From Deferrisomatales bacterium (GTDB taxonomy: Bacteria; Desulfobacterota; Deferrisomatia; Deferrisomatales; JACRMM01): a stretch of 64,000 nucleotides of DNA. Of this stretch, positions 43,203-48,243 are shown in pieces (within the stretch, counting starts at the first letter, position 1; each line of letters starts with the position of its first letter). Where the stretch lies: NCBI GenBank assembly GCA_033551855.1, contig JAWSUI010000009.1, positions 25,334 to 89,333 on the forward strand, in the 5' to 3' direction. The position numbers were made by a program, and so were the translations under genes. The notes beneath the pieces were generated by a model. That model saw only the letters and a program-made list of their open reading frames with translations, had not been told where the DNA came from and did not search any database.

Positions 43203-43410
43203 AGGGTCCTCCGGGGAATGACGGGTTTCCGCACCAGGGAGGGCCGGGTGGGTCCGACGGCGCAGGCGGACGGCCGATCGGTGACCGCCACCCCGTCGGG
43301 ACCTGTGATCCCGCTGGCGGGTCGGACGACCGGAGGGCTCGCAAGGGTCGGGGCGTCCGGCATCGGCCGCCGGAGTCGGCGGACCCGCCCGGCCGTTTCC
43401 CGGATGCGCC
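43203..43410 (+). repeat. Structured intergenic repeat family A, copy 4
   Basis: ggccgggtgggtcc...cgcaggcggacggcc...ggcatcggccgccggag...ggacccgcccggcc. Confidence 0.8.
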
Positions 43411-43424
43411 TTCATTCTCGCGTC

Positions 43425-44834
43425 CTACTCGACGCAGCAGCTCATCCGGCTGATGTCGCGGCGGAAGGCCTGGGCGGCCATCTTGATCGCTTCGCAGTAG
43501 GTGGGAAAGACGTGGGTGGTGTCGATGAGGTCGTCCACGGTAAGGCCGAAGCGCACGGCCAGCGCGGCCTCGTGGATCATCTCGGCCGCGTGGGGCGCGA
43601 GGATGTGGGCCCCCGCAACCCTGCCCGTCTCGTGGTGGGCCACGAGCTTGACCAGCCCCCTCGTGTCGTTCACCGCCATCCCCTTGGGGACCTGGCTCAG
43701 GGCAACCGTCCGACAGGTACAGGTGCCGTGGCGGGCCACGTACCTCGCCTCGGTGAGACCCACGCCGGCCACCTCGGGGTCGGTAAAGATGGCGAAGGGG
43801 ATGGTGTCGGCGTCCAGGGTCTTCTTCTTCCCCTCGAAGGCATTCTCCACTGCCATCTTTCCTTCCTTGGCGGCCACCGTTTCCAGGCAGACGTGGCAGA
43901 CCACGTCCCCGGCGGCCCACACGTAGGGGAGGCTCGTCCGAAGGTGTTCGTCCACCTTGATGTGGCAGCCCTTCACTGTCTCGATGCCAACCCCTTCCAG
44001 GTTGAGCCCCTCGATGTTTCCGGTCACCCCGGTGGCCACCAGGATTTCGTGGGCCACAATTGTCTCTTCCCGGCCGTCCCGCTCCACGACGACCCTCTTC
44101 CCTGCCGAAGTCCGCGCCACCCGGACGGCCTTGGCGCCGGTGCGGATCTCGATCCCCTCCGCCTCCAGGAACCCCTGAAGCGCCTCGGAGATCTCGGGCT
44201 CGGTGACCGAAGCGATCCGGTCGGTGGCTTCGAGGACGGTCACCTTGGACCCGAAGCGCGCAAAAATCTGCGCGAACTCGAGACCCAGGGCACCACCGCC
44301 CAGCACCAGGAGTGAATCGGGCAGGCGCCGCAGGGCCAGGGCCTCGCGGTTGGTGAGGTACCCCGCCTCTTCCAGGCCCGGGATCGCCGGGATCTTCGTC
44401 CGGCAGCCCGTGGCGATCAGGATCTGCTCGCCTTCGACCTCCTCTTCCCCCACCCGGACGACCCGGTCCGAGACAAAGGAGCCCCGCCCTTCGAGCCAGG
44501 TCACGTGGTCGAACCCTCCCAGGACGTCCCGATAGTTCTTCTCACGAGCTTCGGCGACCAGGCGGTCCTTGTCCGCCATGGCCCGCTGAAAGTCGAAGCG
44601 GGCAAGGTTGCCGGCAACGGATGCGAAGCGGGGCTGGCGCACGGCGTGCAGGTGGCCGGCCACGGCCAGGAGGTGTTTGGTGGGCATACATCCCACGTTG
44701 ACGCAGGTTCCGCCTATGGGAAGCCCATCGTTGACCATGGCGGTGCGAAGGCCCATCCGGTCGGCCTGCGTGGCGGCGGCGAACGCCGCCGCGCCGCCCC
44801 CCAGGATTACCAGGTCGTATCGGTTCCTGGGCAT
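43425..44834 (-). CDS. merA: Mercuric reductase lacking the N-terminal NmerA domain
   Basis: GGTCVNVGCMPTK redox dithiol; HVFPTY; C-terminal MSCCVE Cys pair; mer operon context. Confidence 0.93.
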   Translation of the reverse strand: MPRNRYDLVILGGGAAAFAAATQADRMGLRTAMVNDGLPIGGTCVNVGCMPTKHLLAVAGHLHAVRQPRFASVAGNLARFDFQRAMADKDRLVAEAREKNYRDVLGGFDHVTWLEGRGSFVSDRVVRVGEEEVEGEQILIATGCRTKIPAIPGLEEAGYLTNREALALRRLPDSLLVLGGGALGLEFAQIFARFGSKVTVLEATDRIASVTEPEISEALQGFLEAEGIEIRTGAKAVRVARTSAGKRVVVERDGREETIVAHEILVATGVTGNIEGLNLEGVGIETVKGCHIKVDEHLRTSLPYVWAAGDVVCHVCLETVAAKEGKMAVENAFEGKKKTLDADTIPFAIFTDPEVAGVGLTEARYVARHGTCTCRTVALSQVPKGMAVNDTRGLVKLVAHHETGRVAGAHILAPHAAEMIHEAALAVRFGLTVDDLIDTTHVFPTYCEAIKMAAQAFRRDISRMSCCVE

Positions 44835-44847
44835 CCATGTCCTCCTT

Positions 44848-45150
44848 TCACTCCGCCGTAAGCTCCACCGGCCGGCAGGTCATGGCCCCGCCCTCCACCG
44901 GGCAGGCCTTGTGGCAGTGGCAGTCGCCCATGCAGTTGCCGGGGTTCACGACCCGCGCCGTCTTCCCGCCACCGATCTCCACCATCTCGTAGCACCCGCC
45001 CATGCACACCTGCACACACTTGCCACAGCCGATGCACTGGTTCGGATCCACCTCCTGGATATACATGGGCGTCCAGGGCGTTCCGTCCTGGCGGCGGAAG
45101 GTGAGGTAGGTCTTGCTCGAACACAGTCCTCCAGCACAGCAGTCGCTCAT
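44848..45150 (-). CDS. Dicluster-type ferredoxin with N-terminal CC
   Basis: MSDCCAGGLC...DGTPWTP...CIGCGKCVQVC...CMGDCHCHKACP. Confidence 0.85.
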   Translation of the reverse strand: MSDCCAGGLCSSKTYLTFRRQDGTPWTPMYIQEVDPNQCIGCGKCVQVCMGGCYEMVEIGGGKTARVVNPGNCMGDCHCHKACPVEGGAMTCRPVELTAE

Positions 45151-45170
45151 GTCGGCGGCCTTGTGCCCAC

Positions 45171-45500
45171 TCAGTGACCCGAGGGCTCCTGGATGCTCGC
45201 CCGGAACCCTGCCTGCTCCACGGCGGCCACGAGCTCCTGGGGGCTGACTTGGGCCGGGTCGTAGAACACCGTGGCCGTCTTGTTCCGGTAGCTTACCTTG
45301 GCGTCCCGGACGCCGTCGAGCCTCTTGAGGGCGGCCTTGACCGCGAACGCACAGGCGGCACAGGTCAGGCCTTCGAGGGCGAGGGCGGCCTCCCGGCTCT
45401 CCTCGGCCCGGGCATGCCCTGGACGCAGGCCGAGGGACGGGCCCAGGACGAGGGCTCCGATCCACCCTGCGACGGCCAGCAAGCATTTCCTCCGGTTCAT
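45171..45500 (-). CDS. merP: Periplasmic mercury-binding HMA protein
   Basis: Signal peptide MNRRKCLL...; GLTCAAC; directly after merT. Confidence 0.88.
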   Translation of the reverse strand: MNRRKCLLAVAGWIGALVLGPSLGLRPGHARAEESREAALALEGLTCAACAFAVKAALKRLDGVRDAKVSYRNKTATVFYDPAQVSPQELVAAVEQAGFRASIQEPSGH

Positions 45501-45514
45501 GGGGTCGCCTCCCG

Positions 45515-45934
45515 TCACTCGAGGGTCAGCGGCAGCAAGCTGGGGACGAAATAGAGCGCCAGGGCCAGAATCGCAGTGGTCCAAAGCACGATGCGCTGGG
45601 CGCGCAGGGCCCGGGGCGTACAGCAGGCCTCCCCGCGCCGGGCAGCGGCTCGCGGCCGCCAGTAGGCCCGGTAGAAGCCCCAGCCCAGGAAGCCGAGCAT
45701 CAGGGCCGCAAAGAGCGGGCGATACGGCTCCAGTGCCAGGAGCGCCGCTGCGCCCGACACGCCGAGAAAGACCGCCAGGAGCGGGCCGACGCAGCACGCC
45801 GAGGCCAGCAGGCCAGAGACCAGCGCCCCGGCGGCGCCGACTCCCAAGACCTTGCCCCCTCTTGGGCCTTCTGTTCCCCGTGGGCCTACAGCGCACGCTT
45901 GGCCCTTCTCGGTCTTCGCAGGCGCTCGTCCCAT
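45515..45934 (-). CDS. merT: Mercuric ion transporter
   Basis: LASACCVGPL, LEPYRP, loop EACC; three TM segments. Confidence 0.92.
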   Translation of the reverse strand: MGRAPAKTEKGQACAVGPRGTEGPRGGKVLGVGAAGALVSGLLASACCVGPLLAVFLGVSGAAALLALEPYRPLFAALMLGFLGWGFYRAYWRPRAAARRGEACCTPRALRAQRIVLWTTAILALALYFVPSLLPLTLE

Positions 45935-45952
45935 TGCCGCCTCCTTTCTCCT

Positions 45953-46603
45953 TCACGCTCCCGGCGGTGCCCCTCCGAGGAGGGGCCGAAAGTACCGGGC
46001 GGCAAGCTGCACGGCCTGCGCCAATCGAAACAAGCTCCGTTGTTCCGGCTCTTCTTGTTCCCACCTTCTGGCCGTCTCCTCGTCCCGGAGGAAGACCATG
46101 GTGCGTCAAAGGCTTCCTGCGGCGGTGCCCCCGACAGGCCCCCAGCGCACGCCCACATGGAGGCTCTCCGGGGGATCGGCAGCCGTCACCGCCTCGCCGC
46201 GCTGGACCACCCGGATGGGTGCGCCCGTGACGTGGCACGCGGAACGGGTCTCGACCTCGGCCCCGAACATCGGTGCCACGGCCAGCGCGTCCAGGGCGCA
46301 CATCGCGTACAGGGCGTGCCCGTTCACTCGCACCCGGTGCGGCGTTTCCGCCGTGGTCATGGGGTAGGCGCCGGTGATCTCACCGTCTGCCCCCAGGACT
46401 ACGAGGTCGTTGCGGGCCAACTCGGCCAGAGCGCCGGCGCCCGCGGCCGCCTCCACCTCCCGGGCGGTCGGTAGCCGGCCCCGTTTCGCAAAGGTGCGGA
46501 GAATTTCCCGGTGCGCGGCGGCCACGGGGGCCGCCAGGCGCCCCCGGCGCTCGGCCAGGGGGAGGATCTCCTGGAGCCGCTGGAGGGCGACCTCGACCTT
46601 CAC
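45953..46603 (-). CDS. merB: Alkylmercury lyase, predicted selenoprotein (in-frame UGA 46108-46106)
   Basis: GAYP, LYAMCALDA, SACHVTG; read-through gives AAGSL-U-RTMVFLRDEETARRW...QAVQLAARYFRPLL, 216 aa, ending just before the merT RBS. Confidence 0.85.
46069..46098 (-). promoter_or_regulatory. Putative SECIS hairpin of merB
   Basis: UGA, 9 nt, then GUCUUCCUC-CGGGAC-GAGGAGAC (stem with bulged U, G-containing loop). Confidence 0.65.
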
Positions 46604-46607
46604 CGCC

Positions 46608-46880
46608 TCAGTTCCTCGGGGTGCCGACGCCGGCGGCCCGCAGAGCCTCCTCGTCCAGACCGCGGCCCGCGCAGCACGGGGCCAGGGCGCCGTCCACCGC
46701 CACGGCGGGTACCGAGCGCACGCCGAGCTTCCGGGCGCGCTCGGCCACGGCCGGGTCGTGCATGTCGAGCACCCGCACGTCGCAGGACGGACAGGCGAGG
46801 TTCCTCACCCGTTCGACAGCCTCTTCGCATACCGGGCATCCGGCGCTGAACACCTCCACCAATCGCTTCGTGTCGCTCAT
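46608..46880 (-). CDS. Small Cys-rich thioredoxin/glutaredoxin-fold protein
   Basis: VEVFSAGCPVC...CPSC...GVRSVPAVAVDG..APCCAGRG; ATGA overlap with the merR stop. Confidence 0.85.
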   Translation of the reverse strand: MSDTKRLVEVFSAGCPVCEEAVERVRNLACPSCDVRVLDMHDPAVAERARKLGVRSVPAVAVDGALAPCCAGRGLDEEALRAAGVGTPRN

Positions 46881-47308
46881 GATTTCTCGACTCCTCCCCC
46901 CGGATCTTCCGTCTCCCATTCCATGGCCGCGAGGATCGGGCACTCCGTCCCGGTGCCGAAGGTCCGGCAGCGCCCGACCAATTCTTCCAGCACGGCCCGC
47001 ATGCGTTCCAGGGAGGCGATCTTGCCGGTGATGTCGGCGAGCTTGCCTTCGGCCCGGGCCCGGACCTCGTCGCAGGAAGGATCCGCTCGCAGGTCCAGGA
47101 GCTCGGCGATCTCGCGCAGCGTGAAGCCCAATTTCTTGGCGCGCCGGATGAAGCGCACCCGGGAGACCGTCTCGGGCGGATAGCGCCGGAAGCCGCGTTC
47201 GGCCCTCGCGGGCCTGGCTACGAGACCCTTCCGCTCGTAGAAACGCACCGTCTCGACGCCCACCCCCGCCGCTTTCGCCACTTGGCCGATGGTCGGGTCC
47301 TGATTCAT
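46877..47308 (-). CDS. merR: Hg(II)-responsive MerR regulator
   Basis: TIGQVAKAAGVGVETVRFYERKGL; three Cys (SCDEV, GRC...ECPIL). Confidence 0.92.
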   Translation of the reverse strand: MNQDPTIGQVAKAAGVGVETVRFYERKGLVARPARAERGFRRYPPETVSRVRFIRRAKKLGFTLREIAELLDLRADPSCDEVRARAEGKLADITGKIASLERMRAVLEELVGRCRTFGTGTECPILAAMEWETEDPGGGVEKS

Positions 47309-47328
47309 CCCATGACCTCCCAACACTC

Positions 47329-47360
47329 AGTCTAAGGCCCGTACTATGGTACGGAGTCAA
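47329..47360 (-). promoter_or_regulatory. MerR operator/promoter
   Basis: TTGACT, 20-nt spacer, TAGACT; dyad CCGTAC-N4-GTACGG at 47339-47354, as in Tn21/Tn501 operators. Confidence 0.9.
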
Positions 47361-47541
47361 GGCACGCGAGGGCGTCGGCCGTCCCCATCGCGGATCGACC
47401 GGGCCTCCGGTATCTCGGCGGACCGCACAAGAAACCCCTTGCGCGGCCCGTGGGCATTCCAGTGGATGAGGACCGGCCGCGGGGGCCGGTCCCTCCTCGC
47501 TGGTCTCGGTGAGCGGGCTCACGGGTGTCGTCGCCTCCGCG

Positions 47542-48243
47542 TTACGTGGACTCCTTGAACCGGGCCATCATCTTGGCCTGCATCCGCCGGGTGACCTCGG
47601 CCCGATCGTGCCCCTGCCGGAGCCTGCGGCCCAGCTCGGCTCCGGCCTGGCGGGCGGCCTCCAGGGCATCGGGCTGTTTCGCCACGCTCGGGATCATGTC
47701 CTCGGTGATCTTCGCCCCCTCGCCGTAGAGCATGTAGGGAACGCCCACCTTGCAGGTGTCTCCGTAGCCGCAGCTGTAACAGGCGGCGGCGCCCTGGCCG
47801 GTCACCGCGGCCACGGTCTCGATGAAGTTGTAGAGGAAGAACTTGTCGATGTCCGCCGCCGGGAACTGCCCCGACGACCCCCCCACGCCCACGGCGACCC
47901 CGAGCTTTCCCCACAGGGCGTCGCCTTCCCGGTGGCGGAACTGGTACCAGCGCTCCAGGAAAGCGTGGGTCACGCCGTTCAAGGTCGAGTAGAAGTTCGG
48001 GGCGCCGATCACGTACGCGTCGGCCTCGGCGATCTTCGGGCGAAGCTCCCGGAGGTCGTCGTCGAGCACGCAGACGTTGTCCTTCACGCACCCCAGGCAG
48101 GCCACGCAGCCGCCGATCTTCTTTCCCCGCAGGGAGACGAGCTCGTACTCACAGCCGCTTGCGTCCAAAACGGTGCGCACGAGGATGTGGACGCCGGACT
48201 GCTCGTTCTTTCTCGTGCTTCCGCAGATGCCCAGGATCTTCAT
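47542..48243 (-). CDS. Flavodoxin family protein (iron-sulfur flavoprotein-like)
   Basis: MKILGICGSTR, CVACLGC...C..DD, ADAYVIGAPNFY; second CYSCGYGDTC motif. Confidence 0.9.
   Translation of the reverse strand: MKILGICGSTRKNEQSGVHILVRTVLDASGCEYELVSLRGKKIGGCVACLGCVKDNVCVLDDDLRELRPKIAEADAYVIGAPNFYSTLNGVTHAFLERWYQFRHREGDALWGKLGVAVGVGGSSGQFPAADIDKFFLYNFIETVAAVTGQGAAACYSCGYGDTCKVGVPYMLYGEGAKITEDMIPSVAKQPDALEAARQAGAELGRRLRQGHDRAEVTRRMQAKMMARFKEST

Follow-up and report, generated by a model that had tools for sequence, protein, structure and literature searches.

Does the in-frame UGA inside a merB gene of a Deferrisomatales bacterium end a truncated organomercurial lyase, or does it place selenocysteine (Sec) at the catalytic site? 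The gene lies on the minus strand of a 64 000-nucleotide (nt) stretch of contig JAWSUI010000009.1 (assembly GCA_033551855.1, positions 25 334 to 89 333), referred to here as the window and numbered from its first letter. The open reading frame (ORF) starts at GTG 46603 and is closed after 165 amino acids (aa) by TGA 46108–46106. Reading through this triplet yields 50 further open codons (RTMVFLRDEETARRW...AARYFRPLLGGAPPGA) up to a second TGA at 45955–45953, for a total of 216 aa. The ATG of merT follows at 45934, 18 nt beyond the terminal TGA and behind a strong ribosome-binding site, AGGAGAAAGGAGG. An initial annotation of this DNA had given the same coordinates and lengths, which hold, and had placed the end of the gene just before the ribosome-binding site of merT, where we find it too. 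It had also foreseen that gene callers would miss the full-length gene, and the nearest database entries indeed end at 165–170 aa. The features on which the argument turns are as follows.

45953..46603, minus strand: merB including the part beyond its single internal UGA, 216 codons and a terminal TGA
46106..46108, minus strand: in-frame UGA, merB codon 166, proposed Sec at the Cys159 position of MerB
46069..46098, minus strand: hairpin resembling a selenocysteine insertion sequence (SECIS), core helix 46093–46088 with 46081–46076, loop 46087–46082 (CGGGAC)

We consider it likely that merB is a selenoprotein gene whose UGA codon 166 is decoded as Sec at the catalytic site, within a MerR-controlled mer operon, and the gene is very probably functional.

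The read-through product belongs to the MerB family on both sides of the UGA. It matches the Pfam family MerB (PF03243) with 110.3 bits against a cut-off of 27, over residues 83–205 and profile positions 2–125 of 126, so that the match spans the UGA. Among solved structures, sequence searches with phmmer returned MerB2 (5c17, E-value 3e-14) and the MerB of plasmid R831b (3f2g and 1s6l, E-values about 2e-8). In the phmmer alignment to 3f2g_A, C102 falls on C96, D105 on D99 and residue 166 on C159. The CALD motif of the product (C102-A-L-D105) thus supplies the counterparts of the catalytic Cys96 and Asp99, as the initial annotation had supposed, and the C102 and D105 columns are invariant across both homologue alignments (A1 and A5). 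Its further claim that the UGA sits at the Cys159 position also stands: the codon aligns with Cys159 of the E. coli MerB structures (3f2g, 1s6l) and with the matching Cys column of MerB2 (5c17). The codon in this column is UGA and not a Cys codon; should Sec be inserted there, the thiol would give way to a selenol, a functional analogue of the residue that defines MerB rather than that residue itself. An AlphaFold model of the read-through product, built on 23 sequences, has a mean predicted local distance difference test score of 91.2 and a predicted template modelling (TM) score of 0.89, with confidence dropping to 67–75 at residues 151–170, around the active site. All 11 matches of this model in a structure search (E-value ≤0.001) were MerB or MerB2 entries with TM scores of 0.58–0.79. 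The ten crystal entries among them scored 0.71–0.79 over 188–216 columns, and the solution structure 1s6l scored 0.58–0.64.

The column taken by the UGA is otherwise a cysteine column. The initial annotation had expected Cys there in homologues, and Cys was found in all 17 aligned full-length homologue proteins, in 76 of the 80 loci from the genome collection (the remaining four carry TGA) and in all 80 loci retained from the metagenome collection (71 by motif, nine without the motif by tblastn). Further TGA-type merB DNA, sought in the metagenomes, was absent from these 80 loci, all of which are of the Cys type, and the DNA-verified TGA-type set consists of six sequences. TGA stands at merB codon 166 in this genome (G000) and in G003, G006, G007, G008 and G019, which are all six genomes with a MerB among the 21 genomes of the order examined; the records of four of the five relatives are L022, L026 (G019), L027 and L028. 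All six forms read S-L-U at the site (G-S-L-U-R in the window).

Could the UGA be a true stop, with merB decaying, its 165-residue product deprived of the second catalytic ligand and the 50 downstream codons an untranslated remnant? Standard gene calling does give 165 aa, all close database entries are 165–170 aa long, and the energy of the downstream hairpin is indistinguishable from that of shuffled sequence. A remnant, however, should gather frameshifts or stops, and neither occurs in the 43–59 codons after the TGA in any of the six forms. The TGA and the conserved open frame have been kept in six genomes although the TGA-type homologues share only 50–54% protein identity with the MerB of the window. 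Over the 43-codon tail after the TGA, the relatives keep 23–27 of 43 residues, and nucleotide differences concentrate at third codon positions (for example 12/12/23 and 13/12/27 for the three positions), as in the upstream part and as expected of coding sequence. The downstream part, moreover, matches the MerB profile to position 125 of 126 and is predicted with high confidence to fold together with the upstream part. We therefore regard a true stop as extremely unlikely. A related idea, a split gene whose downstream piece starts from an ATG three codons past the UGA, was rejected: L026 has TTT at that place, and the piece would be without catalytic ligand.

Protein databases bear the mark of the internal TGA. 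The close entries P0003 (98% identity), P0004 (68%), P0005 (67%) and P0033 and P0043 (56%) end right before the column. A representative protein library held 1464 proteins matching the merB product at E ≤0.001; we aligned 13 of the best 150 matches, picked as top matches or for a match ending near residue 160–165, and seven of the 13 stop exactly before the column (P0005, P0109, P0144, P0152, P0168, P0173 and P0176). In a FastTree phylogeny of 147 sequences, the TGA forms make up one clade of nine tips (support 0.77) with no Cys form inside it. These tips are five DNA-verified TGA forms and four shortened entries; L186 was omitted, as its contig is without the N-terminal part. A phylum-wide search of 401 genomes added one further close homologue, of the Cys type (G388).

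The initial annotation had described a bulged hairpin with a G-containing loop starting 9 nt after the UGA. The hairpin is there, though the register from 9 nt with a bulged U turns out to be an alternative pairing of the same bases. Numbering from the U of the UGA, the centroid fold pairs nt 11–21 with nt 28–40, with a 2-nt bulge and the loop CGGGAC (nt 22–27); the core helix is formed by nt 16–21 (UUCCUC) with nt 28–33 (GAGGAG), and an outer helix lies beyond the 2-nt bulge. All six pairs of this core helix form in six of six TGA forms, as against four of 130 distinct Cys forms. Twelve Cys forms have a similar peptide, FLxD(E/D)(E/D), and not one of them reaches six core pairs. The local folding energies point the same way, at -7.9 to -12.9 kcal/mol for the TGA forms versus a mean of -6.4 (standard deviation 3.0) for the Cys forms. 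The helix is built from the codons TTC CTC ... GAG GAR in all six TGA forms, whereas TTT and CTG predominate in the Cys forms. In the loop, G stands at position 23 and U at position 24 (G at 24 in the window), a placement which we take to be like that of the bases contacted by SelB in the fdhF element of E. coli. We consider the hairpin a plausible SECIS, appropriate in position. The folding energy of the whole 63 nt was tried as a discriminator and rejected, the TGA forms (-14.5 to -22.1 kcal/mol) not being separated from the Cys forms (mean -15.9); the position-specific helix count was used in its place.

The machinery that Sec insertion requires is encoded in the genome. The initial annotation had proposed looking for selA, selB, selC and selD, and all four were found: a tRNA-Sec (70.9 bits, called tRNA-SeC with anticodon tca by ARAGORN), selA (573 bits), selB (307 bits) and selD (367 bits), each above its curated cut-off. 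Two classical selenoprotein genes of the genome also use TGA. One is selD itself, with one in-frame TGA, and the other is an fdhA-like gene, in which the TGA lies in the classical context C-A-R-L-U-H-S. In both, the TGA is followed by a hairpin.

G000:C50:3310-4233: selD, in-frame TGA followed by a hairpin with GGGGAC at nt 22–27 from the U of the UGA
G000:C5:62720-63475: fdhA-like gene, in-frame TGA followed by a hairpin with GGUCUG at nt 22–27 from the U of the UGA

A general reassignment of TGA was considered and ruled out, because TGA terminates eight of the 10 neighbouring genes checked; the genetic code is not reassigned. The UGA might still be read through as a residue other than Sec: a tRNA-Sec-like tRNA charged with Cys might deliver Cys, or near-cognate suppression might insert Trp. 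Insertion of Sec might also be confined to times of selenium supply. A Cys or other form would then be active at least part of the time. Cys is the family norm at the column, and the library protein P0074 has W there, although this reflects the code table of the gene caller. Such decoding nevertheless sits poorly with the complete Sec pathway, with its Sec-type tRNA of anticodon tca, with the use of TGA in selD and the fdhA-like gene and with the eight of 10 neighbours that end in TGA. TGC and TGT are, besides, one mutation away, yet TGA has been kept in six of six genomes. We hold this alternative to be very improbable, and Sec the likely residue. P0074 itself (191 aa, 64% identical) loses homology after the W, as though a caller translating TGA as Trp had worked on a contig of low quality.

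The second part of the claim concerns the setting. The mer genes of the window are all encoded on the minus strand, their gaps range from -4 to 20 nt, and merB stands between the CPVC gene and merT in the following order.

47330..47360, minus strand: putative mer promoter/operator, TTGACT 47360–47355, 19-nt spacer, TTAGAC 47335–47330
46877..47326, minus strand: merR, listed start GTG 47326, likelier start ATG 47308, 7 nt behind GGAGG
46608..46880, minus strand: thioredoxin/glutaredoxin-like gene with a CPVC motif, overlapping merR by 4 nt and ending 4 nt before merB
45515..45934, minus strand: merT, product with two adjacent Cys in its first membrane helix, 72.8 bits with Pfam MerT (cut-off 32.9)
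45171..45500, minus strand: merP-like gene for a periplasmic metal-binding protein with a CAAC motif, Pfam HMA 59.8 bits against 24.8
44848..45150, minus strand: 4Fe-4S ferredoxin-like gene, product beginning MSDCC, with Pfam Fer4 family matches
43425..44834, minus strand: merA, mercuric reductase core of 469 aa, TIGR02053 539.5 bits against a cut-off of 454.45

A perfect dyad, CCGTAC-CATA-GTACGG (47354–47339; arms of 6+6 nt, 100% complementary, 4 nt between them), lies inside the spacer of the promoter, whose layout presumably resembles that of MerR-type promoters and of the merOP of Tn21 and Tn501. A standard sigma-70 scan of 43300–47600, which allows spacers of 16–18 nt only, returned no promoter, as expected since the MerR-type spacer is 19 nt long. 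The MerR product exceeds the Pfam cut-offs for MerR-DNA-bind (72.6 bits), MerR_1 (68.2) and MerR (50.6), scores slightly below the cut-off of TIGR02051 MerR (142.6 versus 150.85 bits) and contains three Cys, in DPSC, GRC and TEC. The product of the CPVC gene matches Thioredoxin_3 (29.4 bits, cut-off 24.8) and Glutaredoxin (25.0 bits, cut-off 22.9). MerT scored under the cut-off of its NCBIfam equivalog, and so did the merP-like product with TIGR02052 MerP (57.1 against 92.55); the merP ATG at 45500 lies 3 nt upstream of the scanned stretch, and the gap between merT and merP is 14 nt when counted from it. MerA has Pyr_redox_2 and Pyr_redox_dim matches and the redox-active motif CVNVGC, ends in ...SCCVE and is without an N-terminal HMA domain. 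Between merA and the genes hsp20 and lon there are 289 nt. The mer setting that the initial annotation had named (merR, merT, merP and merA) is thus present, together with a putative operator dyad in a promoter of 19-nt spacing. L026 (G019) has the same order of merB, merT, merP and ferredoxin gene up to the end of its contig. The window thus has the complete mer setting and this one relative a part of it, which does not establish the setting for the whole clade.

Two side observations concern members of this operon. The ferredoxin gene with MSDCC, between merP and merA, is not usual in mer operons, and electron donor and metal carrier are candidate roles for its product. The merP-like protein barely passes NF041115, the 'UxxU metal-binding (seleno)protein' (95.2 against 95). 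With CAAC in its sequence, it represents the Cys version of a family whose members are often selenoproteins.

How does this system stand to those already known? With the MerB of plasmid R831b (1S6L, 3F0O, 3F0P, 3F2F) and MerB2 (5C17), the window protein shares PF03243, the fold, the catalytic Cys and Asp and the third-ligand column; identity to these solved proteins is 21–24%, and they have Cys at the Cys159 column where the window has UGA. R831b MerB is of similar length (212 against 216 aa), and both genes share their operon with merT, merP and merA, under the control of MerR, which is predicted for the window. It has C159-C160, however (C160 taken from the titles of C160S entries), whereas the window protein reads L-U-R without a second adjacent Cys. 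Compared with the classical operon, that of the window has merR first and co-directional and contains the extra thioredoxin-like and ferredoxin genes. The Cys-type relatives, such as the 'alkylmercury lyase' of Geothermobacter hydrogeniphilus (P0007/L021), are 40–53% identical over their full length and have the motifs AMCALDA, S-L-C-x-E-M-V-F-L and F-x-P-L-L in common with it; they differ in having TGY at the column and mostly non-complementary bases at the hairpin positions.

The closest precedent is SaoL, a MerB-like 'selenocysteine-assisted organometallic lyase' (NF040728) with Sec at the Cys159 equivalent (Haft and Gwadz, bioRxiv 10.1101/2022.07.06.499078), so that the caveat on novelty in the initial annotation, that MerB-like selenoproteins had been reported, was justified. 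As described in the accessible part of that preprint, SaoL has a CU dipeptide and is encoded in a nine-gene SAO locus with an ABC transporter (SaoABP), for which a metabolic rather than a resistance role is argued. The window protein would resemble SaoL as a MerB-fold selenoprotein with Sec at the Cys159 equivalent, but it reaches only 54.7 bits with NF040728 against a cut-off of 140, in a match confined to residues 58–146, has L-U instead of CU, and is encoded in a mer operon with merA instead of a SAO neighbourhood. The preprint (10.1101/2022.07.06.499078) states that its catalogue contained no selenoprotein for mercury resistance, and the operon of the window is a candidate counter-example. 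In the tables of two reviews, as far as accessible (PMC9312934, PMC13188914), the only entries of this kind are SaoL or 'alkylmercury lyase MerB-like protein', a selenoprotein of the MerT family and the UxxU metal-binding protein. The MerT-family and NF041115 selenoproteins of these tables (PMC9312934, PMC13188914) show that Sec may replace metal-binding Cys in mercury-type transport proteins; in the window, by contrast, MerT has CC and MerP CAAC, and selenium would reside in the enzyme MerB. Our full-text literature search, which did not extend to subscription papers, found no report of a Sec MerB within a mer operon. Because SaoL has been published, novelty rests on the clade and on the mer-operon setting. 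A Sec MerB-type protein is known in SaoL; what appears to be new is the proposed Sec/Cys pair of a MerB subfamily within a complete, probably MerR-controlled mer operon with MerA.

Beside SaoL, three distant MerB-fold genes of the phylum have TGA at the Cys159 column: L187 (G055) with T-U-P, L190 (G381) with GT-U-N and L191 (G376) with C-U-N, the last motif being SaoL-like. The G381 match in the phylum-wide search ends before the Cys159 column. None of the three belongs to the merB clade of the window, and since they too have TGA there, Sec at this site would have arisen or spread in several MerB clades.

Several observations weigh against the proposed selenoprotein or temper the evidence for it. 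First, the stability of the hairpin in the window is at the level of shuffled sequences (z = -0.44, with 62 of 200 shuffles equal or better), and because this is within chance the hairpin by itself is no evidence; chance is exceeded instead by the coincidence of the TGA with the Cys column and by its conservation in related genomes. Second, no compensatory changes were seen in the hairpin (0 of 11 pairs and 0 of 12 pairs, by counts and by RNAalifold, in the six sequences), a set too small and too alike for covariation, with 90% column identity; the only variation in the core helix is U-A to U-G. Conservation of the hairpin is also partly a matter of the protein, because the helix sits in the codons of the conserved peptide VFLRDEE, and the six TGA-type sequences are kin that represent roughly three lineages. 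An Rfam scan of 45800–46300 with E-values up to 10 gave four chance-level matches and no SECIS family. Third, a 5761-nt contig of the public run X1 speaks for the codon, as it spans 45900–46650, retains the TGA and differs from the window only at 46452 and 46486, but it possibly derives from the same sample, and contigs mask rare variants. Fourth, the product falls below the cut-offs of the NCBIfam MerB equivalogs NF009710 (77.3 versus 193) and NF033555 (73.4 versus 200). By these scores it is a divergent MerB, outside the NCBIfam MerB and SaoL equivalogs, and we know of no member of this clade that has been assayed. Lastly, in L022, L027, L028 and L186, four of the six TGA loci, merB does not adjoin merT, merP or merA. 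It is followed there by a small thioredoxin-like ORF, and the other neighbours are unrelated (xanthine-dehydrogenase type, SLT/SBP).

The missed MerB cut-offs and the four loci with unrelated neighbours and a small thioredoxin-like gene would also suit a real selenoprotein that acts on something other than an organomercurial, such as another organometal, or in metal handling, as for SaoL, with the mer-like neighbours of the window serving soft-metal handling in general. The accessible part of the Haft and Gwadz preprint (10.1101/2022.07.06.499078) likewise argues that Sec at the metal site may shift the substrate range. In the window, on the other hand, merB is placed between merR, with its putative dyad operator and 19-nt spacer, and merT, merP and merA; the gaps run from -4 to 20 nt, and MerA scores above the cut-off of its equivalog. 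The protein has also kept the catalytic Cys and Asp, and its nearest solved relatives are the two characterised organomercurial lyases. A different substrate thus seems to have little chance of being the explanation, and we retain the organomercurial lyase as the likely identity of the selenoprotein.

The thioredoxin-like neighbours were also compared between loci. A small ORF of this kind adjoins TGA-type merB in five of the six loci, upstream in the window (CPVC) and downstream elsewhere (GCPS). The downstream ORFs score 21.6–22 bits with Thioredoxin_3, under the cut-off, and the two kinds are only weakly alike (E-value 0.001). Two of them are located as follows.

L028, 789-1058: thioredoxin-like ORF downstream of merB
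L027, 4552-4989: thioredoxin-like ORF downstream of merB

How would such an enzyme work? Binding of mercury by two Cys and protonation by Asp were reportedly established for MerB by Pitts and Summers in 2002 and by mercury-bound structures. In the selenoprotein proposed here, SelB and Sec-tRNA(Sec) would decode the merB UGA, guided by the hairpin shortly downstream, and Sec166 would substitute for the canonical Cys159. Cys102 (Cys96) and Sec166 would bind the mercury of the organomercurial, Asp105 (Asp99) would protonate the leaving carbon, and Hg(II) would stay on the thiolate–selenolate pair. Once released, Hg(II) would pass to MerA for reduction to Hg(0), perhaps with the thioredoxin-like protein as carrier; the C-terminal Cys pair of MerA is also a candidate acceptor of the metal. 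The operator/promoter, merR, the CxxC thioredoxin-like gene, merB, merT, merP, the ferredoxin gene and merA would form one MerR-controlled transcription unit. Selenols, which are ionised at neutral pH, hold mercury more tightly than thiols do; this should help the enzyme to capture and cleave its substrate at low concentration but hamper product release. What the sequences show is the anatomy of the gene, its homology, the Cys/UGA column, the conservation in related genomes of the UGA and of the codons behind it, the Sec genes and the make-up of the operon; from these we infer that Sec is inserted, that the enzyme acts as a lyase, that selenium brings an advantage, that the thioredoxin-like protein takes part and that the genes are co-transcribed. 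The TGA-type and Cys-type MerB offer a natural Sec/Cys pair for the study of Hg-C cleavage and product release.

The genome outside the window adds a further aspect. It contains hgcA (G000:C10:76346-77320, about 1498-2475 of L200, minus strand; NF040863, 430 bits against 275; cap-helix motif NVWCAAGK) and, directly downstream, an hgcB-like gene for a 100-aa ferredoxin ending in CC (L200 1084-1386, minus strand). The organism is thus a predicted mercury methylator that also has merB and merA, and since hgcAB occurs alongside merB/merA, genes for methylation and for demethylation meet in one organism. Cys-MerB systems are thought to be inefficient at the trace methylmercury concentrations of anoxic habitats. 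One may speculate that the methylator (hgcA, hgcB) carries a selenium-dependent module for demethylation and reduction, in which Sec166, as a permanently ionised ligand of very high affinity for mercury, would cleave trace methylmercury, and the CxxC protein would be needed to strip off Hg(II) for a MerA that is without NmerA. We regard this scheme as unlikely on present evidence. If it were true, no selenoenzyme of true mercury resistance would precede this MerB, and selenium availability would be coupled to net methylmercury production within one organism. According to the accessible part of one survey (PMC12484752), genes were called by Prodigal and MerB was kept only with Cys96, Asp99 and Cys159; the demethylation potential of this lineage would be undercounted by such surveys, because they truncate TGA-type MerB after residue 165 and then drop it.

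Immediately upstream of the mer promoter, at 47542-48243 on the minus strand, lies a gene of the NADPH-dependent FMN reductase family, with no NCBIfam match.

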